Shown here: positions 4,086 to 49,345 of the stretch, piece after piece
Layout of the letters: the number at the start of each line of letters is the position of its first letter
Numbering within the stretch: position 1 is the stretch's first letter
IMG/VR virus record: IMGVR_UViG_3300024054_000015
Span: 1 to 64,000 of that record
DNA: 64,000 nt
Source of the DNA: a virus
Direction: 5' to 3' (one strand)
Translations under genes and position numbers: made by a program
Notes under the pieces: model-generated
The model's database searches: none
The model's input: only the letters and a program-made list of their open reading frames with translations
Told to the model about the DNA's origin: nothing

Positions 4086-4181
4086 AAGGGGCCTAGTAGC
4101 CCTTCAGCAACGCGCAAAGCCGCACAAGCACCAATACCTCAGGCGGGCTTGGCGCGTGCTGTAAGGGCTGCTAGGGGCCTT
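4086..4181. repeat. Dispersed 96-97 bp inverted-repeat element, copy 1
   Basis: AAGGGGCCTAG...CTAGGGGCCTT ends; related copies at 19864 and 53289. Confidence 0.75.
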
Positions 4182-4227
4182 AAAACACAGCCCCCCATAA
4201 GTGGTACACGTTCAAAGGAGCAGCAAG

Positions 4228-12485: not shown

Positions 12486-13515
12486 CTATTACAGCCCACT
12501 CAAGATCTTTCATCACAGGGAGTGGCTGGACAAACTCAGAGCCGGTGTTAATCCTTCTCCAATCTTCGTACAGCTAGTACCTACCAACAGATGCAACCAA
12601 GACTGTCACTTCTGTGCCTACAGAATGTCTGGGTACTCTTCCAACGAGAGGTTCCAGGAAAGGGACCAGCTTGACTGGGACAAGCTAAAGGAGATAGTCC
12701 AGGACTGCAAGGACATGGGAGTTAAGGCCATCGAGTTGACTGGTGGCGGCGAGCCCACGGTACACAAGAACTTTCTAGACCTGTGCAGGCTAATCTTGGA
12801 CAGTGGAATCGATCTTGGTCTTGTTACCAACGGATCTGTCTGGTCTGACAGGCATACGGAGGTACTGTCCAAGGCTCTATGGGTTAGGTTCTCTGTAGAC
12901 GCAGGTCGCCCAGAAACCTACGCCAGTATGAGAGGTTCCACTGTCAGGACTTATACAAGAGTAAGGGATGCTATCAGTTCCATGCCTAAAGACGGTCCAG
13001 TGGTAGGTGTAGGGTTTGTGATTAACCGCGAGAACTACAAGGAAATAGAGGAGGCCGCTGACGCAGCTTTTGCAGACGGGGCAGACAACATCCGCTTCAG
13101 TGCTGTTTTCCAGAACGAGGGAACGAAATACTTCGATGGATTCATAGCTGAGGCAACTGCCTCCTGCAACAGAGTGGTGGAGAAGTACAGGTCCACAAGG
13201 ATGAAGGTGTTTGACCTGTTCCTGGACAGAGTCGGTGACCTGGGGCATGGTCCTCCAGACTATACGTTCTGTGGATTCCAGCAAGCCTCTACTTACATTG
13301 GTGCAGACTCTAACGTCTATCGCTGCTGCATCTTGGCCTACAGTCAGCGAGGTATGTTAGGGTGCATACTGGTGAGACGCTTTGCTGACGTGTGGAAGTC
13401 GTTAGACTTCTCCACCTTTGATGCCCACGGTTGTCCTCGCTGCATGTTCAACGCTAAGAACCGAACCATTGCCTATGCTCTAAACCCTAACCCTGCACAC
13501 GTGAACTTTCCGTGA
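12472..13515 (+). CDS. Radical SAM/SPASM protein
   Basis: CNQDCHFC, TGGGEP, C-terminal YRCC...CPRC. Confidence 0.9.
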   Translation: MQADDYYSPLKIFHHREWLDKLRAGVNPSPIFVQLVPTNRCNQDCHFCAYRMSGYSSNERFQERDQLDWDKLKEIVQDCKDMGVKAIELTGGGEPTVHKNFLDLCRLILDSGIDLGLVTNGSVWSDRHTEVLSKALWVRFSVDAGRPETYASMRGSTVRTYTRVRDAISSMPKDGPVVGVGFVINRENYKEIEEAADAAFADGADNIRFSAVFQNEGTKYFDGFIAEATASCNRVVEKYRSTRMKVFDLFLDRVGDLGHGPPDYTFCGFQQASTYIGADSNVYRCCILAYSQRGMLGCILVRRFADVWKSLDFSTFDAHGCPRCMFNAKNRTIAYALNPNPAHVNFP

Positions 13516-14045
13516 TCAACCCAGCGGACAATCTCCGAGACCTCTACACTTGCCTGACGGTAGCCACTTCAGACTGCGAGTCAGTCCTGGACTTGTGCTG
13601 TGGTTTCGGCGAAAAGCTGGCTTGCACTAGAGCAGGGTTCAGGGTTGGTGTAGATATCCACAAGCCTTACCTAGACGTGGCTTGCAAGAAATGGGGGAAC
13701 CGTATTTACTTCGTTTGGGAGGATGCCCTTAGCTACGCTTTTAGCTGTGCCTACCCGTTCGATGGGATCCTACTCATAGATGCCATTGAGCATCTGGAGA
13801 AGCAGCGTGGTCTAGACCTGATCTCCAGGTGTCAAGAAATAGCCAAGAGGCGACTGATCGTATTTACTCCAGAAGGTGTGTGCCCGCAAGATCACGATAC
13901 GTACGAAATGGGTGGTGACTATGCACAGACTCACAAGTCCACCTGGACTGCTGAGGAAATGAGGACTCTAGGGTTTAAGGTAGCCCTCTGGGAAAACTGG
14001 CATCCAGGTACAGAAGGAACATTCTTTGCGATTTGGGAACCTTAG
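13512..14045 (+). CDS. Class I SAM-dependent methyltransferase
   Basis: VLDLCCGFG, GVDI, DAIEHL motifs. Confidence 0.85.
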   Translation: MINPADNLRDLYTCLTVATSDCESVLDLCCGFGEKLACTRAGFRVGVDIHKPYLDVACKKWGNRIYFVWEDALSYAFSCAYPFDGILLIDAIEHLEKQRGLDLISRCQEIAKRRLIVFTPEGVCPQDHDTYEMGGDYAQTHKSTWTAEEMRTLGFKVALWENWHPGTEGTFFAIWEP

Positions 14046-14048
14046 TCC

Positions 14049-14870
14049 ATGATTAGCATGAAGCGTCAGTGGGTCGTGCAGATAGACGTTACCAACGCCT
14101 GCAACAGAGCTTGCAGTAATTGCACGAGGTTGATTGGTCATACCGATGAGACGTTCTATATGGATCCCGACTACTTCCGGCATACCGTGAAGTGCCTGAG
14201 GAGGTTTCCCACTCACAGCCCGCCCAGCCTATACGTGGACGTGCCGAACAAGATGCTAGGCATGATCGGTGGCGAACCCTTGATGCACCCGCAGTTTGAA
14301 GAGTTGGCCAAGATTATGGAAGAGGAGATTCCTTGTAGAGAACACCGAGGACTGTGGACGGGTTTCGTATGGCAGAGGACTAGGTTTGCTGAGTTGATCG
14401 AAAGGGTCTTCGGGTATGTGAACAATAACACTCACTCCACAGAGTGTTACCACTCACCGATCCTAGTGGCCATCAAAGACGTGGTTCCAGATGAGGCCAC
14501 TCGCAAGTCCCTGATCAGCAACTGCTGGCTGCAAAAGATGTGGGCTGGAACCGTAACACCCAAGGGTCTGTTCTTCTGTGAGGTAGCGGGAGCCTTTGAC
14601 TTCGTTATGAAGGGGCCAGGAGGTTTGCCGGTAACAGAGGACTGTTGGGAGAGGCCCTTGTCGGACTTCCAGGAGCAGATAGATCGGTGGTGCCAGGGAT
14701 GTGGAGTACCTCTGCAACTGAAGGGCAGGCGGGACACCGAGGAGGTAGACGACATCAGCCTCAGCAACCTAGCTCTTCTTTCAGAGAGTTCGCGGATAAA
14801 GGTTAGGAAGTATAACCTAGTGACAGGTCTTCAGGAGAGAACAGGTAAACCTTGGGAGTACCTGAAATGA
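14049..14870 (+). CDS. Radical SAM protein
   Basis: CNRACSNC, GGEPLMHP, C-terminal Cys cluster. Confidence 0.85.
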   Translation: MISMKRQWVVQIDVTNACNRACSNCTRLIGHTDETFYMDPDYFRHTVKCLRRFPTHSPPSLYVDVPNKMLGMIGGEPLMHPQFEELAKIMEEEIPCREHRGLWTGFVWQRTRFAELIERVFGYVNNNTHSTECYHSPILVAIKDVVPDEATRKSLISNCWLQKMWAGTVTPKGLFFCEVAGAFDFVMKGPGGLPVTEDCWERPLSDFQEQIDRWCQGCGVPLQLKGRRDTEEVDDISLSNLALLSESSRIKVRKYNLVTGLQERTGKPWEYLK

Positions 14871-15589
14871 CTCACGTATGGACGTATTGGGAAGGGCCGA
14901 TGCCGGAGTACATTAGCATCTGCCTCTGGTCCAGTAGAATGATCTGCTCGAGCGGCCTGGAGTTTACCTGTGTTACTCCAGAGAATGTGCGGACGTTCTT
15001 GCCACCTGGAACAATCCATGAGAACTACTTGAAGCTCCAGCAACCAGCCCTTAGAGCTGATTGTGTGCGGGCGGCTTTGCTGGCAAGGTACGGAGGCTGG
15101 TGGTGGGACGCTGATACGGTAGGCATCAACTATCCAAGCAAGTCCATAGTCAACCCGGAGTCTGCTCTGTATATGATCTGGGACAAGGCTCCTAGGAGAG
15201 TTCTAAATGGCTACATCTACCTGCCACCCGATTCCACGATAGCGAAGGTATGGCTAGGCGCTGTTAACCGAGCCCTGATGGATGACTACGAGCATATCGA
15301 TTGGTGTTCACTCGGAGAGGGAGTGTTGACCAATCTATTGCCAGAGTTGGGAGCAGTGCAGATAGACCGCAGCACGTTCCTACCCATAGACATAGATAGC
15401 TCTGTGGGCTTGTTTTTTGGTGAGGAGGACTTCCATAAGTACCTAACCCATCACACTGTCTGCTTCGGGCTTAACCACTCTTGGTTCATGTACCACAAGT
15501 TTGAGGCTATGAGCCTTCCAGCCTGCGAGTGGCACAAGAGTCCGCTGCTAATCCACAGGCTCTTGGAACATGCTAGGAGGTTGCTATGA
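14867..15589 (+). CDS. GT32-like (capsular polysaccharide synthesis family) glycosyltransferase
   Basis: WTYW, RADCVRAALLARYGGWWWDAD. Confidence 0.85.
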   Translation: MTHVWTYWEGPMPEYISICLWSSRMICSSGLEFTCVTPENVRTFLPPGTIHENYLKLQQPALRADCVRAALLARYGGWWWDADTVGINYPSKSIVNPESALYMIWDKAPRRVLNGYIYLPPDSTIAKVWLGAVNRALMDDYEHIDWCSLGEGVLTNLLPELGAVQIDRSTFLPIDIDSSVGLFFGEEDFHKYLTHHTVCFGLNHSWFMYHKFEAMSLPACEWHKSPLLIHRLLEHARRLL

Positions 15590-16935
15590 AAGCCTCTATT
15601 TGCATGTCTACTTTCTACAGAGAACCTCGAGTATTGCAGAGGACACTTAATAGTATCTTCAAGCAGGAGGTTCCGTTTGAGTTTGAGGTGATCATAGCAG
15701 ACGATGGAGCCTCTGATAAAGAGCAGACTGCCAGAAAGATCTGTGAACGCTTCCCTGTCAAGTACATACCCATTGAGCGGGACAACGTCAAGCGTAATCC
15801 CTGCGTGGCTAGGAACGTAGCCTATAGAGCAGCTACGGGCAGTGTGATCATTGCCCAATCCGACGAGGTAGCTCATGTCAGCCCTAACGCCATAGAGACC
15901 TTGGTGATAGAGCTAGAGCTAAAGCCCAAGTCCTTCATCATCGCCTCCGTTATTGCCTGTGGGCCTGACGGTAGTGAATGGTCTGCTTACACCGGCAGAT
16001 GGTATCGAAACGGGAATCCTCAACCCTACCAGTCAAGGCTTGTTCCGTTCTTCTTCCTTGGAGCCTTGTGGAGAAGAGACCTGTACGCCGTTGGTGGTAA
16101 CGACGAGGAGTTCGTAAGCTACCAGGGATACGACGATGACTGGTTTGCCAGATGCTTGGAGAATGGATTAGGTCTAAGGGCCGTTTATGTGGACTCAGTC
16201 GTGGGACACCACCAGTATCATGAGTGCCACGACACCAAGGAGAAGTACACGCTCTCCAAAGCCTTTTATAGAAGGAAGTGCGAAATGGCTCAACAGGAGA
16301 ATGTTTGGAGGGCTGCTGGAGGTCCTTGGCCTTACGAGGAGTCGTTTGCCTCTGCCTATAAGAGCGGCGGTGATTGGAGCGGCCACGAGTCCGGTAGTGG
16401 TGAGGGGTCTTCCATCAAGGCCACTGAATCCATAAGGGTTATGCTGAAGAACCTGATAGGGCTGCTGGACCTCAAGTCCATCCTGGACATACCTTGTGGA
16501 GACTTTAACTGGATGAGATGGGTGGAGCTAGGTGACGTGAAGTACCTGGGAGCCGACATCGTCAAGGAGCTAGTTCTGCAAAACCAAGAGAGGTTTCCAG
16601 GTAGAGAGTTCTTGTACCTGAACCTGCTAACGGAAAACCTGCCGACGGTAGACCTAGTTCTTTGCAGGGATTGCTTCGGGCACATGTCCTTTGAGGACTG
16701 CAACCGAGCCCTTGAGAACATCAAGCGTAGCAAGAGCAAGTACCTGCTGATGACAACCTTTTGGAACCATGCTAACATGGACGGTAGGACAGGTCCTAGT
16801 TGGCACGCTAGGTCCATGACCAAGTCACCCTTCAACCTGCCACCACCCATGCTGACCGTGGACGAGTTGTGCCAGGAAGTCTATCCAAAGTACGCAGACA
16901 AGAGCTTAGGCTTATGGGAGGTTGCCAAGTTATGA
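15586..16935 (+). CDS. GT2 glycosyltransferase fused to methyltransferase
   Basis: EVIIADDG, ARN, GGNDEEF..YQGYDDD; C-terminal SGSGEGS..ILDIPCGDFNW. Confidence 0.85.
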   Translation: MKASICMSTFYREPRVLQRTLNSIFKQEVPFEFEVIIADDGASDKEQTARKICERFPVKYIPIERDNVKRNPCVARNVAYRAATGSVIIAQSDEVAHVSPNAIETLVIELELKPKSFIIASVIACGPDGSEWSAYTGRWYRNGNPQPYQSRLVPFFFLGALWRRDLYAVGGNDEEFVSYQGYDDDWFARCLENGLGLRAVYVDSVVGHHQYHECHDTKEKYTLSKAFYRRKCEMAQQENVWRAAGGPWPYEESFASAYKSGGDWSGHESGSGEGSSIKATESIRVMLKNLIGLLDLKSILDIPCGDFNWMRWVELGDVKYLGADIVKELVLQNQERFPGREFLYLNLLTENLPTVDLVLCRDCFGHMSFEDCNRALENIKRSKSKYLLMTTFWNHANMDGRTGPSWHARSMTKSPFNLPPPMLTVDELCQEVYPKYADKSLGLWEVAKL

Positions 16936-17666
16936 ACAGCATCGTAGTCTGTGTGGAGTTCGACGATTTCCTAGCTCTTACTTTGCCAAGGAACAGGCGG
17001 CACTTTGGGCGGACGCTGGTAGTTACCTCCTGTGCTGATGTTTCCACTCAGAAGCTGGCTCTGGAGAACTCCTGCGAGTGCTTCGTTACGAACTCGTTCT
17101 ATGAACGTGGGGCGATGTTCAACAAGGGCTCGGCCTTGGAGAAGGGCCTGGACGTTCTCGGCAGGGAGGGCTGGATTTGCATCTGGGATGCAGACATTGT
17201 CATGCCGAACTCCATAGAGTTTGACAAGTCAGAGGAGTGCCTCTATACAGCCCTACGCAGAACCCTAGACTTCCCGCAGGACTTCAACGACAACCTGGAC
17301 TGGGAAACCGTTCCTGTTACTGGTCTCGAGTGCGAGTACCCTGGATACTTTCAACTGTTCCATGTCTCAGCAGCTAGACAAAAGCCTTGGTACGAAACAG
17401 ACTGGACGCACGCGGGCGGCTGTGATGGCAGCTTCCAGCACAGGTTCAAGAGGTTGGCTAGACCACCCTTCAACGTCCTGCACTTAGGCCCGAGCGTAGA
17501 CGAAGCTCCACTATTCCATTTGAGAATAGGAAACAACTGGTGCGGCAGGACCACTCCCAGGTTAGACGGTAAACCACTGTCGCCAGATGCTAGGCTGCAT
17601 CAAGTGGCCTCTATTTCAGAGAGTAGAAGGGTAGGTTGTGGCACAATGAATGAGAAGCTGAAATGA
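16932..17666 (+). CDS. Glycosyltransferase-like protein (GT-A)
   Basis: FNKG, WDADI (DxD), GYFQLF, VLHLG motifs. Confidence 0.7.
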   Translation: MNSIVVCVEFDDFLALTLPRNRRHFGRTLVVTSCADVSTQKLALENSCECFVTNSFYERGAMFNKGSALEKGLDVLGREGWICIWDADIVMPNSIEFDKSEECLYTALRRTLDFPQDFNDNLDWETVPVTGLECEYPGYFQLFHVSAARQKPWYETDWTHAGGCDGSFQHRFKRLARPPFNVLHLGPSVDEAPLFHLRIGNNWCGRTTPRLDGKPLSPDARLHQVASISESRRVGCGTMNEKLK

Positions 17667-18526
17667 TTTCAAAGCGTATGGCGTTCTTCTGGGTTGGTCG
17701 CATGTCTTGGCTAAGGTGGCTGACCCTCAGTAGCTTCGTTAGGTTCAACCCAGACTGGGAGGTTGTGCTTTACACAGCCGACAGTGAGTTTGTCGGGTCA
17801 AAGCATTGGAAGTCTGACAACGACGACGATAGCTCCTACGAGGGGCCTGACTATTGGGAGCATATTCCAAAGCAGGTCATCGTCAAGAAGTTTGTACCAC
17901 CTTCCGTAATGAGTGCTGCCCAGATGTGTGATCTGTTCCAGTGGTGGTACTTGGGCACAGAGGGTGGGTTCTATGCCGACATGGACATCCTGTGGCTCCG
18001 GCCTTTCGATGAGACTTATAGAACCTGTCTAAACTCTAACGCTGTGTTCTGCCTAGAGGGTACACTCCTAGCCATTGGCCTTGTAGGCTCTACACCGGAT
18101 TGCCCACTGTTCAGGGCTATCTATAGCGGAGCCGAGATAGAGTCCAATGCCGACTATCAGCACTATGGGACTAACCTTGTCTACAGAGTGTTCGAGATTG
18201 GCTATGGTAAACCTCATCCCGGCAAGAAGTTTCTTAACCTAGCTAGAAGGATCTACCCGAATCTGCAAATAGAGGAGATCCCGCAGAATACGGTCTATCC
18301 ATTTATCTGGGATGAGGCCGACAAGATCTTTGAGAGAAAGCTGCCTGTGCCTAACAGTTCTGTAGGAATCCACTGGTTTGGAGGAGGGCCAATCCCTAAC
18401 AAATGGAACAGGTTATTGACCGAGGACTCCTGGACAAGCTACGACAACACTTTCACTGCCAGATTGAATAGGATCTGCAAAGTTGAAGGTAACTTTAATC
18501 TATCCCCCACAGCAGTCGCGTCCTGA
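17663..18526 (+). CDS. GT32-like DxD glycosyltransferase
   Basis: FFWVG, DLFQWWYL...GGFYADMD, GIHWFGG. Confidence 0.8.
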   Translation: MISKRMAFFWVGRMSWLRWLTLSSFVRFNPDWEVVLYTADSEFVGSKHWKSDNDDDSSYEGPDYWEHIPKQVIVKKFVPPSVMSAAQMCDLFQWWYLGTEGGFYADMDILWLRPFDETYRTCLNSNAVFCLEGTLLAIGLVGSTPDCPLFRAIYSGAEIESNADYQHYGTNLVYRVFEIGYGKPHPGKKFLNLARRIYPNLQIEEIPQNTVYPFIWDEADKIFERKLPVPNSSVGIHWFGGGPIPNKWNRLLTEDSWTSYDNTFTARLNRICKVEGNFNLSPTAVAS

Positions 18527-19841
18527 CATTCCCCACAAGCCAGAGGCTTCCCTAGCTTATCCTTATCTGGCTGGGGGTCTACTAGACCTTGGTGTAAGTG
18601 TCAGTATCTATGACGCCTGTGTAGGGAACAGTAAAGATCCTGAGGACGTGTTCTACAACTCTGTGGACCTCCCTAGTGGGCTACGCAGATACGGGGTTTC
18701 AGACGACAGGATCTTAGAGGAGGTTAGCGACAGTGACCTAGTTGGCATCACTTCCATATTCACTGCTCAGGAAACGATGGCCCTGTACGTCGGCAGGCTC
18801 ATCAAGAAACATTTTCCAGACAAGGTCTTGGTTTGTGGCGGCACCAATGCCAGAAGCAGACCTAGGATGTTCATCAAGTCTGGGTTTGACGTGGTCTGTA
18901 TGTCTGAGGCCGACTACAGCATCCAAGCCATCGCCTACGCAGTAGAGAACCACAGGCCGACTAGAAGGTTCTACCGGCAACCACTGATCACCAACCTGGA
19001 CCAGCTTCCCATGCCAGCTTGGGAGCTACACCAGAACGATCGGTACTGGCAGTTAGGAAAGCCTCACGGTTCAGCCCAAGGTGAGGGCTTCAAGTACGCT
19101 CCCATCATGACCTCTAGAGGATGTGTGTTCAGGTGCAGCTATTGCCACATCTCAGGAGAGCAAGGCATCTGCAAGTTTCGTGTCAAGTCCTTGGACAGGG
19201 TTTCCTTAGAGTTGGAGAAGCTTCGCACCCTGGGTGTAGAGAACCTCTTCATTGAGGACGACACGCTATTCGGGAACAAGCCCAGGGGCCTTGACGTCTT
19301 GAGGCTAGTCCAGCAGTTCAGCTTTAAGGTCTGGGACATCAACGGCGTCAACATTGCCCACCTGTTCAAAGGCAGCGAGCCAGACCAAGAAGTCCTGGAC
19401 ACTCTTCAGGCTTGTGGCTTTGCAGCCCTGACCATTCCAGTAGAGTCTGGTAGCCAGAGGATCCTGGACAAGTACGCCTCCAGGAAGTGGCAGGTAGCCA
19501 GATACGACATATCGAAACTCATCAAGGGTCTGAACAGCAGAGGCATCAAGGCAGGCGTGAACTACATGCTGGGCTATCCAGACGAGACCCTAGAGGAGAT
19601 GCAGTCAACCATCGCTCTAGCTCAGAAGCTAAGAGACGCTGGGGCGAACAGTTCAAACTTCATGATCGTTATCCCACTGCCTGGAACTGCCATCTATGAC
19701 ATGGCTATTAGGGAGGGGTATCTGGATCTAGACTTTAACCCAGATACGTTCAACTGGAGGCAAGCCAGCATGAAGAATACAACCGTGCCAGCAAGTCAAA
19801 TAGAGGAGATGCAAGCCGAAGCCTACGCCAAGCTAAACTAG
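18483..19841 (+). CDS. Cobalamin-binding radical SAM protein
   Basis: N-terminal B12-binding domain (LVGITS, VCGG); TSRGCVFRCSYC; ESGS; GYPDET; PLPGT. Confidence 0.9.
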   Translation: MKVTLIYPPQQSRPDIPHKPEASLAYPYLAGGLLDLGVSVSIYDACVGNSKDPEDVFYNSVDLPSGLRRYGVSDDRILEEVSDSDLVGITSIFTAQETMALYVGRLIKKHFPDKVLVCGGTNARSRPRMFIKSGFDVVCMSEADYSIQAIAYAVENHRPTRRFYRQPLITNLDQLPMPAWELHQNDRYWQLGKPHGSAQGEGFKYAPIMTSRGCVFRCSYCHISGEQGICKFRVKSLDRVSLELEKLRTLGVENLFIEDDTLFGNKPRGLDVLRLVQQFSFKVWDINGVNIAHLFKGSEPDQEVLDTLQACGFAALTIPVESGSQRILDKYASRKWQVARYDISKLIKGLNSRGIKAGVNYMLGYPDETLEEMQSTIALAQKLRDAGANSSNFMIVIPLPGTAIYDMAIREGYLDLDFNPDTFNWRQASMKNTTVPASQIEEMQAEAYAKLN

Positions 19842-19863
19842 GCTGTTTGGCGTAATGCCCAAC

Positions 19864-19960
19864 AAGGCCCCTAGCTACCCTGTAGGCGAGCGCAAGCCGT
19901 AACAAGGTGCAGCTAGGCCACTAACTACCAGCGCTCGGCTACGGGCCTGCTAGGGGCTTT
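19864..19960. repeat. Dispersed 96-97 bp inverted-repeat element, copy 2
   Basis: AAGGCCCCTAG...CTAGGGGCTTT ends, 97 bp span. Confidence 0.75.
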
Positions 19961-19986
19961 AATTGGCATACTACCTTTGGGGGTAA

Positions 19987-20046
19987 GGTAGGCAGCGCTC
20001 TCGCTCGGGTCCTGCTCCGCCCGTAGCTTGAGAGCGCTGCCCTACC
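19987..20046. terminator. Long hairpin between convergent transcription arms
   Basis: GGCAGCGCTCTC (19991-20002) pairs with GAGAGCGCTGCC (20030-20041); no U tract. Confidence 0.55.
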
Positions 20047-28808: not shown

Positions 28809-29513
28809 TTACTCCTGGGCCTTGGCCTTCTTCAGTTCCTCACGACCCTTGGCCGTGATCTTGAACCGCTTCCCTCGCACCCCCTCCTCCGGCACGAGCT
28901 CTTCGAGCAGCCCGCCTTCCACGATCTGGGGCAGCTTCTTGCCCTTCTGGATTCCAGTGCTGTCGGCGATCTCACTGGCAGTCCGAATGTTGCCGTCATC
29001 CATGGCCTCCAGCACCTTGATCATGTTCGGCGTCAAGCCATTGAATGACTTCCGGCCTTCCCCCTTGGCCCTCGCCAGCTTCGGCAGCGGTCCAATCGAG
29101 GCCCGGTGCTTCTTGGCATCCTCCAGAATGCTCCACTCCTCGGTGTACTCCAGTTCCCGTTGGGCTTTCGCCACAGCGGCATCGGCCAGAGCGATCTCCT
29201 CCTCCTTCTTGGCCCTCTCAGCCAAGGCCAACTTCTTCTCGTTTTCCTTGGCCTCCTTCTTGGAGTTCTTCTCCTTTTTCTCCTTCTCCTGGGCTTGCTT
29301 CAGCTCCTTCTTGAGCTCCTCCATCTTCCGCTTGATGGCCTCCTTGGCCTCGTTCTGGGCCTTGGCCTTCTTGACGTTCTCCTCGTCCATCTTCTTCTCC
29401 TCGGGGGTCGTGGCGGGCTTCCCAACCGGCAGGGGCTTCGTGGTCCCCTCGGCGGCCTTCTTCTTCTGCTCCTCGGCCTTCTGCTGGTTCTGCGGGTTCT
29501 GATTCTTAGCCAT
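28809..29513 (-). CDS. Lys/Glu-rich coiled-coil protein with C-terminal winged helix
   Basis: LTPNMIKVL...TASEIADSTGI...GKRFKITAKGRE; paralog at 48951. Confidence 0.75.
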   Translation of the reverse strand: MAKNQNPQNQQKAEEQKKKAAEGTTKPLPVGKPATTPEEKKMDEENVKKAKAQNEAKEAIKRKMEELKKELKQAQEKEKKEKNSKKEAKENEKKLALAERAKKEEEIALADAAVAKAQRELEYTEEWSILEDAKKHRASIGPLPKLARAKGEGRKSFNGLTPNMIKVLEAMDDGNIRTASEIADSTGIQKGKKLPQIVEGGLLEELVPEEGVRGKRFKITAKGREELKKAKAQE

Positions 29514-29557
29514 CTGTTGCTCCTGCGCTCCTAAGCGCTGTAAACGAAACGAAACAC

Positions 29558-29609
29558 GAAACACAGCCCTCCGCCGAGTAACGACACTCGGTACGATCCT
29601 CTCCGGAGG
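29558..29609 (-). promoter_or_regulatory. tRNA-like mini-structure in 5' leader, copy 2
   Basis: CCTCCG/CGGAGG stem plus CCGAG/CTCGG arm, then CTGTGTTTC; 14-mer identical to copy 1. Confidence 0.5.
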
Positions 29610-29660
29610 CTCCAAGGATCACTGCCAAAGTGGCAACCCTTGGCAAGCACTGGCAACTAG

Positions 29661-29676
29661 AGCAAATGCCGTGCCA
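29661..29676 (-). promoter_or_regulatory. Sigma54 (RpoN) -24/-12 promoter
   Basis: Minus strand TGGCACGGCATTTGCT matches the consensus; intergenic. Confidence 0.75.
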
Positions 29677-31041: not shown

Positions 31042-31451
31042 AGCTTTACTCCCAACTTTTCCATTCTGGCCGTTACCTCGGCCATCTCTTCATCACTCAA
31101 GGTTACTCCAGCCTGCTCGCAGGCTTGCAGTGCTGCCAACAGGGCTTGCATTTCATCCAGTTGCCCTCGCAGCTTCTTCGGCCTGTTCTTCTCTGCAATA
31201 AGTTCATTCTGCTTCTCGTTACTCTTATGGTAGCACGCCTGGCATACCGTCGTAACGTTCCAAGTGTCATAACCATTCTGGTTAATCAACAGCCTCGTAG
31301 CTTCCACTTCCTCCGCCTCCTCCACTGTAAGGCAAGGCTTGCAGTGGTAGGGGCAGTTTCGGCATCGTCCTATTCGGTACACTTCAGGTGGCATACTACC
31401 TGCCCTCCCGTCCTTATTTCCAAATGGTAATATTCTAATCATTCGCTCCAC
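31038..31451 (-). CDS. Cys-containing hypothetical protein
   Basis: CRNC..HCKPC...CQAC. Confidence 0.6.
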   Translation of the reverse strand: MERMIRILPFGNKDGRAGSMPPEVYRIGRCRNCPYHCKPCLTVEEAEEVEATRLLINQNGYDTWNVTTVCQACYHKSNEKQNELIAEKNRPKKLRGQLDEMQALLAALQACEQAGVTLSDEEMAEVTARMEKLGVKL

Positions 31452-31518
31452 GCCTTACACTGCCTGCGCTGCCTGCTATACGCTGCGCCACTGTGTAGGC
31501 AAAAACCAATAGGCGCAA

Positions 31519-31550
31519 TAAAGCCCGTATGGCAAGCCATACGGGCTTTA
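31519..31550 (-). terminator. Intrinsic terminator of the island gene
   Basis: Perfect IR TAAAGCCCGTATGGC-AA-GCCATACGGGCTTTA just past the stop; T-rich tail on minus strand. Confidence 0.75.
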
Positions 31551-31566
31551 CGTGCGCTGCGCTGTG

Positions 31567-31920
31567 TTACTTGCCAGCGCTTACCAGCATGTAGTAGGCT
31601 GTGCCACCAACGGTAGTACCGTTGTTGCCAACGTAGCCGCCAGTGGTAACGCTTACCACTTGGCCAGCGCTGGCAAGCTTGCGCAATGTGCCGCGCAGTG
31701 GTGCCCATACAAGCTTGCCATTGCTGCGCTTGCGCGGCTTAAAGCCGCAAGCTTGCGCTACTTGGCGCAGTGTGTAGGGCTTACCTGCCTGCAAGCTTGC
31801 AAGTACTGCGCTGCCTTGCGGCGCTGCCTGCGCTGTGCTGGCAAGCGCTGCCTGCAATGCTGCAAGCGCTGCCTGTTGGGGGCTGGTGGTGGTGCTGGTG
31901 GTGGTGCTGGTGGTTGCCAT
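31567..31920 (-). CDS. Basic winged-helix-like DNA-binding protein with no Asp/Glu (117 aa)
   Basis: VLASLQAGKPYTLRQVAQACG...LRGTLRKLASAGQV..wing; TTAGGGG RBS; own promoter and terminator. Confidence 0.7.
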   Translation of the reverse strand: MATTSTTTSTTTSPQQAALAALQAALASTAQAAPQGSAVLASLQAGKPYTLRQVAQACGFKPRKRSNGKLVWAPLRGTLRKLASAGQVVSVTTGGYVGNNGTTVGGTAYYMLVSAGK

Positions 31921-31997
31921 GTGCGTTACCCCTAAGCTGGTGGTGCAGTACCGTTGCTGCCACATTGGCAGCAACCGGCGTAACAGTGGCAACAACC

Positions 31998-32013
31998 GCA
32001 AGCGCTGTGCCAA
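31998..32013 (-). promoter_or_regulatory. Sigma54 (RpoN) -24/-12 promoter
   Basis: Minus strand TTGGCACAGCGCTTGC about 80 nt upstream of the ATG at 31920. Confidence 0.7.
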
Positions 32014-32147
32014 TGGCGCGCAAAATGGCTACAAGTGGCAGCGCGCGCGCACATATATGTTGTGTGCGCGCGCCGCCCCTGCCGGTCATTCACCATACAG
32101 ACTCATAGAAAGTTTGGATAACATGGAAATACGACTATTGGAAATAT

Positions 32148-32186
32148 CTAGACCTCCATACAAGATCCGTTTGTATGGAGATCTAG
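32148..32186 (-). terminator. Hairpin terminator upstream of the island
   Basis: CTAGACCTCCATACAA pairs with TTGTATGGAGATCTAG right after the stop of ORF 32197. Confidence 0.6.
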
Positions 32187-32196
32187 GTTAGACTGC

Positions 32197-33447
32197 TCAT
32201 CCTTGTGACTTGTCCAAGCTTCCAATGTCAATACCCATCAGGTCACCAAACACTTCCCCAACCGTTGGACAAGCTGCCAACCTTTCCACTCCATCCTGGT
32301 CCTTGATTAGATCAAGGGTGACGTCCTCCTCAGCCAACTTCTTGTTTTCTGCGAATTTCCACCAGGATTGGACGATTAGGGCGACCCTTTCCTGGAGAAA
32401 AGAGCCTCCAGCAGAGTCCATCAGTTCTGATACAGCTTGTATGAGCAGCTTCATGGACTTGTCGCCAGAAGCGATGGCAGTCCAAAAGCTGCAAGCCTTA
32501 TCCCACATGTCCCAATTCAGCAAGTCCTCTGTGGGACAGTCGGCCTGGATGTAGCCTGTGCCCTCGGAGTTCTCCCGCTCGCTGCTACTGGACCCCATGA
32601 GGTACAGCAGTGCCGCAGCGTATCCAGGACTGGGATAATACTTGAGCTTGTCGTCATTTCCATTCTCCTCGTATATGTGCCGCACGCACTCCAGGAGCTT
32701 CGGATGGCGTTGGATGAAGTCCAAGCTCTCGGCATGTGTACGCCTGGGAGCAAAGGCGTTTTCGCTGGCTCCAGTGCGCTGCCAGAGCAGCCTCACAGCA
32801 TAGTCTGCCATACGGCTGAGCATTTTCAGCTTACGCTTGTCCTTGGACCTGGAGGCGTCCATGTCTCCAAACAGCCCGGAGGCGTAGATGGCATCCGCCA
32901 AGCTACGAGGCTTGCCAGTGTTGATGGTGTTAATGCTTTGGATGTCTTCACGTACTCCAATGTTGATGAAGCAGTGAATCTTCGGCTCTTCTCCCCAATG
33001 GTGGTACTTGTCCGGATTGTTGAGCCATTCCTGCTCAGCCAGCACTAAGCCGATTAGGCGATGCTTCCCGTCGATCACTAGGGCTGTGCGGCTGATAATG
33101 ATCGACTCACCGTTCGCCTCGCCGCCATCGCCGTTCCAGTGCCCACCGAGTATTTCGCCCATCCACTGCAAGGCAGTAGCCATATAGAACGGTCGCTGCT
33201 TCTCGACGTTAAAGCACTTGGTTGCGACTCCATTGCGGTCCTTCAGGAGAAATTCTGTGTAGGGCTTGTCGGCGTTGTCCGACTGCTTCCAGCCTAGGAA
33301 GGTTCGAGCCTGCTCGGCTGTTAGCCAACCTACCTTCCCCTTGAGCTCGGGGTAGATCACCTTACGCTCTTTGGGCGGCGCTGGCTCTTTGGACTGCTTC
33401 TTGCTCTTAGCCTTGGACTCTTCCAACTTTTCAACAAACTTCGGCAT
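32197..33447 (-). CDS. ParB/Srx-like N-terminal domain protein
   Basis: NGESIII...VIDGKHRL motif; AAGGAG RBS. Confidence 0.6.
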   Translation of the reverse strand: MPKFVEKLEESKAKSKKQSKEPAPPKERKVIYPELKGKVGWLTAEQARTFLGWKQSDNADKPYTEFLLKDRNGVATKCFNVEKQRPFYMATALQWMGEILGGHWNGDGGEANGESIIISRTALVIDGKHRLIGLVLAEQEWLNNPDKYHHWGEEPKIHCFINIGVREDIQSINTINTGKPRSLADAIYASGLFGDMDASRSKDKRKLKMLSRMADYAVRLLWQRTGASENAFAPRRTHAESLDFIQRHPKLLECVRHIYEENGNDDKLKYYPSPGYAAALLYLMGSSSSERENSEGTGYIQADCPTEDLLNWDMWDKACSFWTAIASGDKSMKLLIQAVSELMDSAGGSFLQERVALIVQSWWKFAENKKLAEEDVTLDLIKDQDGVERLAACPTVGEVFGDLMGIDIGSLDKSQG

Positions 33448-33457
33448 GTGTTGCTCC

Positions 33458-33790
33458 TTAACCAAAATCAACTGCACTAGGTACAAACTGTTCCCTTTCG
33501 TCCAACTCTTCCTGAGGAACATCCTCAGGTTCTACTGGCTGTGCTGAAAGCGTTCTCCTTTCTTTGAGTTCTTCTTTTGTCAGGTACTGCCATCCACATA
33601 GACCCTCGTCTAGTTCTGGGGCTTCGTGGTTGGCAGTAGAGGTACTAATGACCTTAATACCTATCCCTTTAGTAGTCCCACGGCCATTAGACCGTACGAT
33701 GTGGTCCTCACTAGACCACCCTGCGCGAATTTTCGCAGTTTCCTGGGCAATTTCTTCCTCTGTGGGAAGATAGGGTGTAGCCCTCGGCAT
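33458..33790 (-). CDS. Hypothetical protein (first gene of leftward arm)
   Basis: AAGGAGG RBS; YLPTEEEIA...IRAGWS. Confidence 0.7.
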   Translation of the reverse strand: MPRATPYLPTEEEIAQETAKIRAGWSSEDHIVRSNGRGTTKGIGIKVISTSTANHEAPELDEGLCGWQYLTKEELKERRTLSAQPVEPEDVPQEELDEREQFVPSAVDFG

Positions 33791-33834
33791 TTGGAACCTC
33801 CTTTAGTTGCTGGCTGTTGTTCCAAGTATGCCTA

Positions 33835-33863
33835 ATTATACACAACTATTTATGTTTTAACAA
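33835..33863 (-). promoter_or_regulatory. Sigma70-type promoter (leftward)
   Basis: TTGTTA-17-TATAAT on minus strand. Confidence 0.7.
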
Positions 33864-34030
33864 TAACCCCTTTGGGTGGGGCTAACAAGCAGTTCGGATC
33901 TACTTTGGATCTTCTTTAACTCTTACTCTAATAATATAATAATAAAATAATAAGAATACTGACCCATTGTAAGTATAGTGGAGAATGCCGCAAGTGCAAG
34001 GCCCGAGGCCGCGAATGGTGTGCGGCTCCC

Positions 34031-34059
34031 TTGCAAAAGCCTTATTTATGCTTTAACAT
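34031..34059 (+). promoter_or_regulatory. Sigma70-type promoter (rightward)
   Basis: TTGCAA-17-TAACAT. Confidence 0.55.
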
Positions 34060-34065
34060 AAAGGT

Positions 34066-34638
34066 GTGGCACCTTACCCTTCTCTTCAGAAAGTTGCGGC
34101 GATGCGGGAAGAATTCGAAAGGATGATTGAGTTAGGCAAATGCGGGTACAAGCTCGCAGTCCTCAAGATTGTTAGACCAGACACCGATCCCGAGTACACC
34201 TACCAGTTAAGGCTGGATGGGCTGCGCTATGGGCAGTTCGGCATTGTGCAGGAGGATGAGATCTTCTACGTGGTCCACGTGGGCTCGGGCAGAGTTTGCG
34301 GTGAGTTCACAGTTATTGAGACTGCTGAGCGTGAGGTTTTTCTTCTCAGAAAATTGACCGACTGGAGGAAGGTTGGCTGGAGTGACAATGAGAAGTTTCT
34401 AAAGAGTCCTTTCCGCTTCATCTGTGCTGAAGCTGCGGAGTATTGTGTAGGTCTGGACAAGCCATTTGACAGACTCGCCAAGGCTGTGAAGGCCGCTCTC
34501 CCTAAGACTAAGGAAGAGATCGTGGAAGAGTTTGCATTTGAGCTACAGTCCACTCCATTCGGGGATGATGAGGAATTTGTACCTCCCAAGCGGTCTGAAG
34601 CCAAGAAAGACGATGGCTGGGGGCATACTATTACATAG
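34066..34638 (+). CDS. Hypothetical protein
   Basis: 190 aa; start may be the ATG at 34102. Confidence 0.65.
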   Translation: MAPYPSLQKVAAMREEFERMIELGKCGYKLAVLKIVRPDTDPEYTYQLRLDGLRYGQFGIVQEDEIFYVVHVGSGRVCGEFTVIETAEREVFLLRKLTDWRKVGWSDNEKFLKSPFRFICAEAAEYCVGLDKPFDRLAKAVKAALPKTKEEIVEEFAFELQSTPFGDDEEFVPPKRSEAKKDDGWGHTIT

Positions 34639-40606: not shown

Positions 40607-40832
40607 AATCTATGAACCATTGGATATGCACACAGAGTGTCGGCGGATAATCAAGCTCCGCATTGCGGAGCTTGGGCTCCTGCGGGCGGAAGTGGAGCGG
40701 TTGCGGAAGGCGTTGCTGTGTCCAGAGTGCGCTGGGAAAGGACAAGTGGCTGTGTTTGGTATCACTACCGTTAACTGGATGGACTGCCCCAACTGCGAGG
40801 CAGCGAAGATCCGAAAGGAAGCACAGAAATGA
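40599..40832 (+). CDS. Small Zn-finger protein
   Basis: EVERLR, CPECAGKG...CPNC. Confidence 0.6.
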   Translation: MSKIYEPLDMHTECRRIIKLRIAELGLLRAEVERLRKALLCPECAGKGQVAVFGITTVNWMDCPNCEAAKIRKEAQK

Positions 40833-42325
40833 GTAAGACTAGAAAGTTGCAGTTTGAGAATCTCGAGTCCCGTCAGTTGCTCTCGACCGATCTATGGCCG
40901 AAAGGGGTGGGACTGAAGGCCGATGTCTTCGTCGATGGCGGGGTTGAATTGTCGAAGGTGTCGTTGGCAAAATCCGCCAACCTCGCTGGACTCACACGCG
41001 AAGTGTTCTTCACCAACAGTGGTGCGACGACGCGCGCTGTGATCGGTGGCAATGCCAACGATACCAACGGTGCTCTGCTGTTCCCGGATGGCCAGCCGCG
41101 ATTTGGCACCATCTATGTCAACGGCGGATCGGCGGGTCATGCCAAGATAATGGGCGCGGCGGGGCGACAAGCAATAGAAACCTTCTATGCCCACGGAGGT
41201 TCCTACACCGGCTCGTGTGCTGGTGAGTTTGTGGCAGCACGTCGTATTCCGTCGCTTTGGGGCGGGAAGGTTGGTAATCAAGGTAACACAGGAAGACAAA
41301 CCATTACGTTTGATGAAACCGACCATCCGCTGGTGCAGGATTTGATGCGCTGGAACGGCGGCAGTAATGTCGTCACCAACGTCCCGCACTATTGGGGACC
41401 GACGAACCGGGAATCTTATCCGCATCCCGAGGGGACGCTGTTCCTCGGCACGATTACGGGCGGGCTGTATCGTGGAACCGATTTCCTCGTCGAATACCAA
41501 CGCGATGCGGAATCGGGGGTAACGGTGCTCAGCCCCTCCCATCCTGAGTATGGTAGGCAGGCTAGTCATACAGCCTTGATGGCGTCGATACTAAAGCGGG
41601 CCAACGATCTGTCGCGCACCACACCGGACCTGAAGGGCACGCTGGTTAGCGACCAGTCCTTGGAAATGAGCGGCCCGGAACAGAAAGTCGGTGATGGGCA
41701 GTATCACAGATATACGCTCGAGGTTCCAGAGGGAACGAGCGTACTGTACGTGGGTCTCACCAACCTTAGCGGCAACGCTGACCTCTTTATACAGAAGGAT
41801 GGCGTAGCGCACGCTGGTAGCTACCTAGTGAAGTCAACCAACGTCGGCGATGACATGGTGGCAATTCCAAGCCCGGAGGCTGGCACGTATGAGATCAGTG
41901 TGTTCGGGGCACATACGGTGTTGAATGGTGCAGCCTACACTTTGTCAGTGAAAGCTCAAGCGGTGGACATGGTACTAGCGGAAGCGGAGATGAACATGAG
42001 TGACGAGGTGAAGGTCGAAGGTCCGTACACCTTCGGGTTGACCCCTGGCTCCAAGTTGGAGGTCCAGACCATTGAAGGTCAGGAGATCGATCGCCTGCGG
42101 GTGGAAATGGATCAGTTACAAAAGAAACTGGATGAGGCTAACAAGTTGTTGGCCGCGTCGATGCGACTGTTGAAGAATCGCGATTACTATTGGAGTTGGA
42201 ACTATAAGCTGGAGCAATACGGCTACTTCAGCCAGGGTGAGTACGTCGGTACGGAGTTACTGGACGTGGTGAAACTGGAGGCCAGACTCGCAAATGAAAG
42301 AGCCAGCAACAGTAACGCCAGTTGA
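40829..42325 (+). CDS. Planctomycete-type exported protein: BPL_N/GATase-like domain plus PPC domain
   Basis: N-terminal RKLQFENLESRQLLS; GGSYTGSCAG and SHPE; PPC-like GNADLFI...PEAGTYEISVFG. Confidence 0.7.
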   Translation: MSKTRKLQFENLESRQLLSTDLWPKGVGLKADVFVDGGVELSKVSLAKSANLAGLTREVFFTNSGATTRAVIGGNANDTNGALLFPDGQPRFGTIYVNGGSAGHAKIMGAAGRQAIETFYAHGGSYTGSCAGEFVAARRIPSLWGGKVGNQGNTGRQTITFDETDHPLVQDLMRWNGGSNVVTNVPHYWGPTNRESYPHPEGTLFLGTITGGLYRGTDFLVEYQRDAESGVTVLSPSHPEYGRQASHTALMASILKRANDLSRTTPDLKGTLVSDQSLEMSGPEQKVGDGQYHRYTLEVPEGTSVLYVGLTNLSGNADLFIQKDGVAHAGSYLVKSTNVGDDMVAIPSPEAGTYEISVFGAHTVLNGAAYTLSVKAQAVDMVLAEAEMNMSDEVKVEGPYTFGLTPGSKLEVQTIEGQEIDRLRVEMDQLQKKLDEANKLLAASMRLLKNRDYYWSWNYKLEQYGYFSQGEYVGTELLDVVKLEARLANERASNSNAS

Positions 42326-45970: not shown

Positions 45971-46356
45971 AGGCTAAGTGTGTAGCTATCTTAGATACTA
46001 TGTGGGGAGGATCTGGCAAGGCTCCAGGTATGTTTAGGATAAACCCTAAGAACCACACAGGCCGGAGGCTGTACTGGTTCCTCGGCCACAAGGATCTATG
46101 GGTTACGAATGCCTGCACAGAGTACGTCGCCAATGCCAAGCTGCACGGGAGGCCAGACCCTAAGAGGTTGGCAACTAACCTCCAGAGAGTCACCTGTGAC
46201 CTATTGCTGGTCTGTGGTTCGGTGGCTGCTAAAGCCTTTAGGAAGTGTGGCTACAAACCGAAGTGTAGGGTCATATACATTCCGCATCCAGCTTGGCGTG
46301 GTTGGACAATGGAGCACTTGGAAGAAGTGAGAAGGAGAATACAAGATGAAGATTGA
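45967..46356 (+). CDS. Divergent UDG-superfamily-like protein
   Basis: WVTNAC, LLVCGSVA, IPHPAWR. Confidence 0.55.
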   Translation: MKAKCVAILDTMWGGSGKAPGMFRINPKNHTGRRLYWFLGHKDLWVTNACTEYVANAKLHGRPDPKRLATNLQRVTCDLLLVCGSVAAKAFRKCGYKPKCRVIYIPHPAWRGWTMEHLEEVRRRIQDED

Positions 46357-47224
46357 AGATGTTAGGAAGCTAAGCCCAGAAGGGAGGTTTCTGTATTGGG
46401 TTGGGGAAAGATGGAATATCCTTAGCAAGAGAAGGAGTGGCTATGTAAGGCCCTGGACGAATGACAAGATCTTACAGTCCTACTACTTTACCAATGTGAA
46501 GCGTAAGGATGACAAGGTCACCATCTGGGTTACTGAGAACATTATTGGACCAATGCAATGGGATCCACTGGTCATCTTTGCAGTCCTAGCCTTTCGGTGG
46601 TTCAACCAACCCCAACCTTCTGGAGAGTATCTAGTAAGTCATGATCTTCTAAAGCTGTGGAACTGCGAGTTGGCAGTGAAGGGACTTACAGGGTTCAAGA
46701 ACGCGGGCTTGAAAGTGTTCACTGGAGCCTTTAACATTTCCAATGGAGGTAGTAGCAAGCCTAAAGTCAACCGCGTCTGCGAGGACTACATCCAGCCAGT
46801 ATGGGAGTGTCGAGAGAACTTACTGAACCGTATATTAGAGCCCAAGGAGCGTACCCTCGCAAGAGCCTTTGAGGTAATCTCCGAGTATCCAGGTATGGGT
46901 GGCAGTGGCTTCATGGCTGCTCAGGTTGTCTGTGATCTAGCCTACACACACTTTCTAGAGGATGCTAAGGACTTTGAAACATGGTGTTCCTGGGGTCCGG
47001 GAAGTAGACGTGGTATGAATAGAGTGTGTGGCTTTGATGAAAACTTTCCAATGCCAGCAGGGGATTGGAATGTTAGACTTCAACGCTTGCGTGGGGTCAT
47101 CAGTAGGAAGCTTGGCCTAAACCTCCATGCCCGCGATGTTCAGAACTGTCTATGTGAGTTCTCGAAATACGAAAGGGCTTTGTGGAATCAAGGTCACTTA
47201 AAGAGGAGGTACAAGGGTGCCTAG
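46346..47224 (+). CDS. 5-hmdU DNA kinase-like protein (aGPT-Pplase1 family)
   Basis: PWTNDKILQSYYFTNVKRKDD, FRWFN, GPGSRRG, QNCLCEFSKY. Confidence 0.85.
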   Translation: MKIEDVRKLSPEGRFLYWVGERWNILSKRRSGYVRPWTNDKILQSYYFTNVKRKDDKVTIWVTENIIGPMQWDPLVIFAVLAFRWFNQPQPSGEYLVSHDLLKLWNCELAVKGLTGFKNAGLKVFTGAFNISNGGSSKPKVNRVCEDYIQPVWECRENLLNRILEPKERTLARAFEVISEYPGMGGSGFMAAQVVCDLAYTHFLEDAKDFETWCSWGPGSRRGMNRVCGFDENFPMPAGDWNVRLQRLRGVISRKLGLNLHARDVQNCLCEFSKYERALWNQGHLKRRYKGA

Positions 47225-48134
47225 AATACAGGAGCAGTTGATTGTCTATGTCCCCACTAGGGGAAGAGCTCGCAAGCAGACAACCCTCAAGCAGTTTGAC
47301 CTCTATAAAAGGCCAGACGTGTTTGTAGTGGTTCCAGAGTGTGAACGCAGGTTGTGGACTAGGGATGTGCTGGTAGTTCCAGACGACTACAAGTTTTCTG
47401 ACATTCGGCAGTTCATCCTTAACTGTCCTGGGAAGTACCATCTGGTGTTGGATGACGACCTAAGACCCGCGGTCAGAAGGATCGACGATCCAACTAAGTT
47501 CACCAACCTAGAGGTTATGGACAGGGCTTCTAGGGCAGACCATATTGACCAACTGTTTGATACGATACTGTCGTTACTCCAAGAGGGATGGGTGCATGGA
47601 GGCATTGCGGCTCGGCAAGGGGCCAACAACGACACCAATCAGTATCAGTTCTGTAGTCGGGTGGTAAGAGCCCACTTCTACAACGCAGAGATTGTGAAGA
47701 GTCTAGGACACGACTTTCGGCAGTTCGTTATTAAGCAGGACTATGACTTCATCCTGTCCATGCTGTGTAAGGGGATCCCTAACATAGTGATAAACGAATA
47801 TGTCCAGGATCAGGTTGGCAGTAACACTTCAGGAGGTTGCTCCAGGTATAGGACAAGCTCGGTGCTAGAGGAAGGAGCTAATCTACTACACCAGAAGTAT
47901 CCAGACTTCGTAAAGGTGGTGCATAAGCACCCCAAGACTTCCTGGGGAGGAAAGCCTAGAGTGGATGTAGTGATCCAGTGGAAGAAAGCCTATAAGGAGG
48001 GGTTAGAGTATGCCCGTCATTTACAGAGAAAGAATCCGGCCTCCATGGACAATAAAGATAGAGCAATCGCGCGGTTGCAACCTCTCATGCAAGTTCTGTC
48101 CAATAAACTACTTGAAGGAAATCAACCAAAGTAG
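47217..48134 (+). CDS. TAGT/GREB1/JGT-like DNA glycosyltransferase
   Basis: VPTRGR, RQFIL, VLDDD, QDYDF, GGCSRYRT, QWKKAY. Confidence 0.75.
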   Translation: MPRIQEQLIVYVPTRGRARKQTTLKQFDLYKRPDVFVVVPECERRLWTRDVLVVPDDYKFSDIRQFILNCPGKYHLVLDDDLRPAVRRIDDPTKFTNLEVMDRASRADHIDQLFDTILSLLQEGWVHGGIAARQGANNDTNQYQFCSRVVRAHFYNAEIVKSLGHDFRQFVIKQDYDFILSMLCKGIPNIVINEYVQDQVGSNTSGGCSRYRTSSVLEEGANLLHQKYPDFVKVVHKHPKTSWGGKPRVDVVIQWKKAYKEGLEYARHLQRKNPASMDNKDRAIARLQPLMQVLSNKLLEGNQPK

Positions 48135-49271: not shown

Positions 49272-49317
49272 CAAATGCTCCTTTAGAAATGTAACCAACA
49301 AAACACCACTACCTTGC

Positions 49318-49345
49318 ATTGTAGGGTATAATGAAGTATTGGCAA
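49318..49345 (-). promoter_or_regulatory. Sigma70-type promoter
   Basis: TTGCCA-16-TACAAT on minus strand; overlapping plus-strand TATAAT at 49327. Confidence 0.55.

Follow-up and report, generated by a model that had tools for sequence, protein, structure and literature searches.

A gene cassette emptied of GA and TC steps in a lake phage with thymine-modification genes encodes a predicted winged-helix protein without acidic residues

We have found that an uncultured lake phage carries a 638-bp island of DNA without a single GA or TC step, where about 91 would be expected at the density of its genome, and that this island holds a gene whose 117-aa product lacks both aspartate and glutamate. 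All TC/GA steps have been removed from the cassette by selection on the DNA. The phage also encodes a set of thymine-modification enzymes, and the simplest account of the purge would be that T is marked in TpC and that the cassette is kept as ordinary DNA.

The window, that is, the whole 64,000-base stretch analysed here, covers bases 1-64000 of an 80,045-bp IMG/VR virus record that recurs across lake-water metagenomes. The phage encodes structural and packaging proteins (small and large terminase, portal, tape measure) and a replication set (family-A DNA polymerase, helicase, ligase and a primase-like zinc finger). It further carries matches to Thymidylat_synt (1.2e-20), HMUDK_hel (1.4e-38) and TAGT (3.6e-10), together with a radical SAM-SPASM protein and MazG. 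By family match, a thymidylate-synthase-like hydroxymethylase homolog thus occurs alongside hmU-processing enzymes, the combination that characterizes 5-hmdU-based thymidine hypermodification. Pfam models for TET/JBP, TGT/DpdA and QueC found no match in the phage genome; 7-deazaguanine at GA was discarded as a candidate modification for want of a TGT/DpdA or QueC gene, and TET-type T oxidation for want of a Tet_JBP gene. At the end of the structural block (12472-19841, plus strand) we also noted two radical SAM enzymes, one of them B12-binding, three glycosyltransferase-like proteins and a GT2-methyltransferase fusion. Elsewhere, a 498-aa protein (40829-42325, plus strand) combines a 'Planctomycete extracellular' N-terminal motif with a PPC domain, a weak hint at a planctomycete host. 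The features on which the analysis turns are the following.

31448-32085, both strands: GA/TC-free island, 638 bp
32034-32080, no strand assigned: GC-rich palindrome at the upstream border of the island, its two 20-nt arms flanking CATATATG (folded as RNA, -39.5 kcal/mol, z -5.0)
31998-32012, minus: sigma-54-type -24/-12 box, TGGCAC-N5-TTGC, perfect match
31984-31993, minus: GTTGCCAnTG box, common to the second -24/-12 promoter
31953-31975, minus: leader hairpin, 10-bp stem and 3-nt loop, core TGCCA-nnn-TGGCA, with a counterpart at the second promoter
31929-31933, minus: GA-free ribosome-binding site AGGGG, not of the GGAG type, 8 nt before the ATG
31567-31920, minus: coding sequence, 117 aa, of which residues 1-13 form a leader rich in Thr/Ser, 14-28 an amphipathic helix of Ala/Leu/Gln and 34-117 a predicted winged-helix core
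31674-31799, no strand assigned: four CAAGCTTG palindromes in the coding sequence, starting at 31674, 31710, 31748 and 31792 (spacing 36/38/44 bp)
31519-31550, minus: terminator hairpin with a perfect 15-bp stem that can be prolonged to 20 pairs, then UUUAUU (-35.9 kcal/mol, z -4.9)
29662-29676, minus: second perfect -24/-12 box, TGGCACG-N4-TTGCT, an exact fit to TGGCACG-N4-TTGCW
46346-47224, plus: HMUDK_hel protein (5-hmdU-kinase helical domain), match 1.4e-38
47217-48134, no strand assigned: TAGT-like transferase

The island is bounded by GA/TC steps at 31447 and 32086. No other gap in the 80-kb genome is as long as the 639 between them, the second and third longest measuring 150 and 98 nt. 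The genome holds a mean of 28 GA/TC per 200 bp, its density elsewhere is normal or high (0.136-0.158 per base), and no comparable gap was found in it for any other dinucleotide class. We compared the coding sequence with 5000 recodings in which the amino-acid sequence was kept fixed and codons were sampled from the long ORFs of the phage. The recoded genes contained 27.9 +/- 3.9 GA/TC, with a minimum of 15, against 0 observed. The non-coding DNA of the island (119 + 165 = 284 bases) has none either, for which P is about 1e-19 at genome density. Since these 284 bases are clean, and since a recoded protein would carry about 28 GA/TC, the ban acts on the DNA and not on the protein. Both strands are purged alike, a symmetry that suggests double-stranded DNA, and not RNA, as the object of the purge; the purge also follows the boundaries of the cassette.

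The composition of the protein follows from this ban. The first-pass annotation, made from the sequence, had proposed that the product lacks Asp and Glu, that its serines are encoded by AGY only and that its amino-acid alphabet is set at the level of the DNA. We find 0 Asp/Glu in the protein, with 11 Lys+Arg and a net charge of +11; each of the ten serines is encoded by AGC, and translation ends at TAA. The ban indeed spans codon choice and the flanking non-coding DNA alike. The absence of Asp/Glu, the AGC-only serines, the CTT/GTT codons, the TAA stop and the glutamines found where relatives have glutamate are therefore consequences of the GA/TC ban and not a chosen property of the protein, although selection for charge could partly have contributed to a protein free of acidic residues.

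To judge from its elements, the island is a self-contained cassette: palindrome, -24/-12 box, leader hairpin, GA-free ribosome site, coding sequence and terminator appear in order within its limits. The palindrome at its upstream edge may be an insulating hairpin, or else a protein-binding or activator site; a further hairpin (32148-32186), placed after the upstream gene, is not part of the island. The sigma-54-type box is the only promoter-like element that we found for the 117-aa gene. The first-pass annotation had taken the protein to be immediate-early, a suggestion that gains no support from this element, and perhaps to let modified DNA be transcribed or to coat it, which is speculation. 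Perfect TGGCAC-N5-TTGC occurs twice in the window against 0.23 expected, both times on the minus strand, in intergenic DNA and upstream of ORFs. Consensus scans detected no sigma-70-like promoter, and no terminator either, though the hairpin at 31519-31550 folds strongly, and Rfam matched nothing inside the island. About 0.6 kb downstream of it, in the same leftward operon, we observed a match to the Hammerhead type II ribozyme (RF02276; 30800-30865, minus strand; 39.4 bits against a gathering threshold of 37, E 6e-6).

The second perfect box is likewise followed by the GTTGCCAnTG box and a hairpin. The ORF behind it (28809-29615, minus strand) encodes a Lys/Glu-rich protein of 268 aa with an HTH-like C-terminal segment, and no relation between this protein and the 117-aa protein was shown by hhalign (E 0.065). 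This sister gene is rich in GA/TC, with just 41 nt clean at its promoter. Purging of an entire coding region is therefore special to the 117-aa gene, and a purged template is not generally needed for transcription from this type of promoter. The TGGCAC-N5-TTGC match to sigma-54 promoters is perfect, and the upstream palindrome sits where an activator site could be. Against this likeness, Pfam models for sigma-54, enhancer-binding ATPase and T7-type RNA polymerase found none of them in the phage genome, so that neither sigma-54 nor its ATPase is encoded by the phage; the motif could also be a phage-specific promoter that merely resembles the sigma-54 type. A scan of viral contigs with the extended promoter motif gave one match (L003), which lies inside an unrelated polyprotein and was dismissed as chance.

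Shorter GA/TC-free patches occur at other control and intergenic DNA of the genome, where six gaps of at least 70 nt were counted against 0.25 expected. Three GA/TC-poor elements (4139-4212, 19818-19999 and 53254-53404) share inverted repeats of the form AAGGCCCCTA ... (G)CTGCTAGGGGC(C/T)TTAA; placed where gene blocks end or ahead of ORF 53230-54606, they may act as terminators or as structured elements. Three further patches (33821-33894, 34027-34081 and 49286-49333) contain promoter-like hexamers that do without the GA of TTGACA (TTGCAA...TAACAT; TTGCAT...TATAAT), and two of the three fall inside the divergent control region, where the GA/TC density is low (0.096). Within the island itself, contigs from lake metagenomes show two SNPs and a TGGT insertion, none of which makes a GA/TC, and a variant contig from the same kind of source keeps the start boundary of the island. 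Two 30-nt pieces from the contig that encodes a homolog of the P0003 type are also GA/TC-free (P = 0.03 given their peptides). Thin as they are, these data support a conserved DNA-level GA/TC rule.

The open frame at 31567-31920 is very probably a real, conserved gene. Since GA/TC-free DNA cannot contain TGA or TCA, long open frames come cheaply in the island, and five overlapping ORFs of 102-148 aa cross it in several frames; among them, only this one combines a ribosome site at its start with a terminator. The search for homologs that the first-pass annotation had proposed returned 11 metagenomic relatives with 40-75% identity that keep the frame, their indels being in-frame and their replacements conservative; an additional match (P0009) was rejected as a low-complexity artefact. 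All 11 family members are poor in acidic residues (0-3 per protein) and carry 9-18 Lys+Arg. At one alignment position Glu occurs in four relatives (LRE[VL]A) and Gln in the 117-aa protein (Gln53) and six other members, and the other scattered Asp/Glu of the relatives align mostly with Gln of the 117-aa protein, or with Ala/Thr. Gln is a chemically conservative choice that is free of GA, where deamination would give Lys or Asn. Three homologs have mis-called N-terminal extensions that amount to about 100 codons of upstream DNA with 0 Asp/Glu, which hints that this upstream DNA is GA-poor as well. With the 117-aa protein or the family alignments as query, no related loci were found in viral, metagenome or genome collections, and blastn of the region against phage records gave no match.

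As to the fold, the helix-turn-helix-wing pattern that had been read from the sequence agrees with structure prediction. An AF2 model built from a 10-sequence alignment is compact, with a core pLDDT of 73-83 and the elements H36-42, H51-58, H73-85, E88-93 and E107-112. The N-terminal amphipathic helix (14-28) is followed in the model by helix, strand, helix, an insert, a long helix and a beta wing, the insert being a basic segment of 14 residues between helices 2 and 3 of the winged-helix core. Foldseek against the PDB retrieved winged-helix domains (MarR, PadR, ArsR/SmtB, SelB and the N-terminal domains of plant O-methyltransferases) with E 0.006-0.05 and probability 0.75-1.0. VIA-align, which is independent of Foldseek, returned almost exclusively winged helices in its top 50 (Z 7-8), and its core-only alignments cover 62-69 residues of model residues 34-117 at an rmsd of 2-3 A. 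Matches in BFVD were small phage HTH proteins (best E 2.8e-4), while the ESM Atlas yielded unnamed or wHTH clusters only (scores about 0.9, TM 0.45-0.5). We therefore predict a winged-helix fold for the 117-aa protein from matches of middling strength (Z 7-8; Foldseek E 0.006-0.05).

At the sequence level, the 117-aa protein has no family match in Pfam, PHROGs, NCBIfam or PDB sequences, and no Pfam model, those of MarR, ArsR and PadR included, matches it at E <= 0.1. Over 10 family members, the best Pfam matches are MlrA_helical (0.0074) and DUF3253 (0.031), all of them below cut-off, and the profile of the family alignment (A2) had no match at E <= 10 among PDB sequences. Three specific assignments were considered and rejected. 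The name 'Atl1', given by JGI to one homolog (P0005), finds no support, DNA_binding_1 being absent from the Pfam matches of all members and the PCHR/PWHR motif from the alignment; a type II DNA-binding protein of the HU/TF1 kind has no Pfam match, and the predicted fold is a winged helix; and Z-alpha domains, which would suggest Z-DNA binding, appear only among generic winged-helix matches. Taken with the model, these searches indicate a new small family with a predicted winged-helix fold that is confined to close relatives of the lake phage. The fold, the net charge and the basic insert suggest that the protein binds DNA, and it is probably a dimer, a state that the predicted amphipathic N-terminal helix fits. 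Small winged-helix regulators (MarR, ArsR/SmtB, PadR) and uncharacterised small phage wHTH proteins share with it the three helices and the beta-hairpin wing, and also fit it in size and in the likely dimerisation helix. It differs from MarR, ArsR and PadR in having no sequence-family match, in its 14-residue basic insert and in lacking any acidic residue.

A second peculiarity of the gene is its content of CAAGCTTG palindromes. Five copies exist in the entire genome and four of them lie within the 117-aa coding sequence, in three codon contexts, where dinucleotide shuffles give an expectation of 0.06. Under a codon-aware null in which protein sequence, GA/TC ban and the codon usage of the gene itself are all preserved, the mean is 0.96 (P = 0.002). 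It is attractive to think that a dimeric winged-helix protein, as modelled, would bind these palindromes within its own gene, but the P0003-like variant has changes in two of these four sites, and we therefore regard this as a lead only.

Upstream of the cassette, the neighbouring gene (32197-33522, minus strand) encodes a 441-aa phage protein that is widespread (244 homologs) and has a DGKHR motif. Its DGQHR/ParB-Srx signal is weak (TIGR03187, E 0.002), and its Foldseek list, also weak, is led by ParB N-domains; ParB-like activators of phage T-dioxygenases have recently been described (PMC13229309). With this gene or the helicase as single query, no related loci were found. A homolog of the 117-aa protein (P0008) and one of the neighbour (P0025) are each recorded on a contig of 79,911 bp, so that synteny probably holds for this pair. 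Among 55 viral loci of distant relatives, whose neighbour gene is 28-44% identical, none carries a dinucleotide-free island the size of a gene, and the 117-aa protein has no homolog within 6 kb. On this evidence from sequence comparison, the cassette appears to be confined to a narrow clade.

The explanation that we tentatively favour, with a confidence a little short of even, is that the island is a modification-exempt cassette for a basic, dimeric regulator. The thymine-modification pathway (synthase-like hydroxymethylase, HMUDK_hel, TAGT-type glycosyltransferase and radical SAM) would mark T in TpC, and the cassette at 31448-32085 would have to remain ordinary, unmarked DNA, so that its expression and control would be independent of the modification state. 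The cassette might be exempt for other reasons: its DNA, with the four palindromes, might be the binding platform of the protein, or it might have to escape a repressor or coat that reads the mark. The regulatory role of the protein and the TC specificity of the modification are both inferred, the latter only from the purge and from published NTC/TG precedents. Several findings count against a modification-based reading, namely the GA/TC-rich sister gene, the want of a purged island at the 55 distant-relative loci, the loss of two palindromes in the P0003-like variant and the middling fold matches.

Two precedents make such a context rule conceivable. The phage T-dioxygenase 5mYOX97 has a strong NTC preference (PMC13229309), and Pbunavirus F8/14-1 carries sugar-type hypermodified T at TG, amounting to about one quarter of its T (PMC12191111). 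In both, a dinucleotide context picks the thymines to be marked, about a quarter of all T, and TpC accounts for 30% of the thymines of the lake phage, which shares with that setting its hmU-pathway and glycosyltransferase genes. The lake phage differs from the 5mYOX97 case in having no TET/JBP gene, and its pathway, known from genes alone, appears to make hmU through a thymidylate-synthase-like enzyme. Neither report, in the parts consulted, describes a gene cassette purged of the target step (PMC13229309, PMC12191111). Likewise, our search of the literature on unmodified regions or dinucleotide avoidance in hypermodified phages returned nothing relevant and no description of a dinucleotide-purged cassette. 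For a protein that reads the modification state, TF1 of phage SPO1 offers a functional analogy: it is a type II DNA-binding protein with a preference for hmU-DNA (Grove et al. 1996, as cited in PMC3969353), small and basic, from a phage whose thymine is replaced via the hmU route. TF1 has the HU fold, whereas the 117-aa protein is a predicted winged helix without homology to it.

The main rival to modification exemption is nuclease avoidance. Sites with TC/GA would be recognised either by a defence enzyme of the host or by a nuclease with which the phage degrades unmarked DNA, and until protection is complete the gene would have to persist or remain open to transcription; the cause of the purge would be cutting instead of modification. 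We consider this unlikely. GA/TC occurs within many restriction sites, and a strand-symmetric purge that tracks the cassette boundaries would suit such a pressure, but we know of no nuclease that recognises a bare dinucleotide, and the island retains common restriction sites (AAGCTT four times, GCGC 28 times). Moreover, with GA/TC normal or high elsewhere in the genome, cuts there would still kill the phage. Restriction-site avoidance is familiar from site-poor leading regions such as the first-step-transfer DNA of T5 and the early region of T7, which resemble the island in that short words have been selected out of DNA that functions early or unprotected; here, by contrast, a bare dinucleotide is concerned, its purge is total, it is limited to one cassette of 0.64 kb and it has altered the amino-acid alphabet. 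Modification-dependent END nucleases that act early on hypermodified phages (PMC12191111) provide a precedent in its favour. Less probable still is a binding-platform module of the lambda O/origin or parS type. The island would then serve chiefly as a DNA element, be it an operator array, an origin or a site of partition or nucleation, with the protein bound to the four CAAGCTTG sites and the purge keeping the platform readable. The palindromes, 36-44 bp apart within the coding sequence and improbable under the codon-aware null, agree with this, as do the predicted amphipathic helix that would fit a dimer, the weakly ParB/DGQHR-like neighbour and the AT-richer DNA just outside the island (32087-32200). 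The ori-lambda iterons lie inside the O gene, so that in both cases the gene of a winged-helix protein, known or predicted to bind DNA, contains repeated dyad-symmetric sites in its coding sequence; the 117-aa protein is much smaller than lambda O and without homology to it, no unwinding element is recognised, and the variant strain conserves the sites only in part. Nor does the protein resemble known initiators in sequence; cumulative GC skew reaches its minimum near 34 kb, away from the island; and a platform accounts for clean binding sites but not for all 638 bp.

The remaining alternatives fare worse. If selection acted on the protein alone, keeping the family extremely basic as a histone-like coat, the loss of GA/TC would be a side effect, and the scarcity of acidic residues in 11 of 11 members fits that picture; normal codons would nevertheless have given about 28 GA/TC and never fewer than 15, and charge cannot explain 284 clean non-coding bases that include the ribosome site and terminator, so that we hold this to be very improbable. 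Just as improbable is that there is no gene at all, the five overlapping ORFs being chance frames in a non-coding element where TGA/TCA is impossible, given that only one frame is provided with both a ribosome site at its start and a terminator, that the 11 homologs show protein-like conservation down to 40% identity and that their alignment of 10 sequences yields a confident compact fold. We find it scarcely credible that the island is the footprint of a TC-specific cytosine deaminase (TC to TT, GA to AA) on a highly transcribed unit. AA is enriched on the plus strand (observed/expected 1.76), as such an enzyme would leave it, yet TT on that strand is not (0.86), and GC and TG are the most enriched steps; at the Glu positions of relatives the protein has Gln and not Lys; and the protein is intact and conserved, with the ban kept in diverged strains.

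If modification exemption of the cassette is correct, sequence alone would give the modification context, TpC, of an uncultured virus, and the purge would single out the gene that the phage cannot afford to have modified, offering a handle on how hypermodified genomes are transcribed and regulated. A dinucleotide-free cassette may then serve as a signature of context-specific modification systems in metagenomes. A broader proposition, which we put forward as possible but rather doubtful, is that phages with dinucleotide-context hypermodification delete the target step from promoter to terminator, that DNA chemistry would thereby set the amino-acid alphabet of a protein, here by taking out Asp and Glu, and that the exempt winged-helix factor would read or control the modified versus the unmodified genome. 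The cassette is also an unusually clean natural case in which a nucleotide-level constraint rewrites a folded protein without acidic residues.
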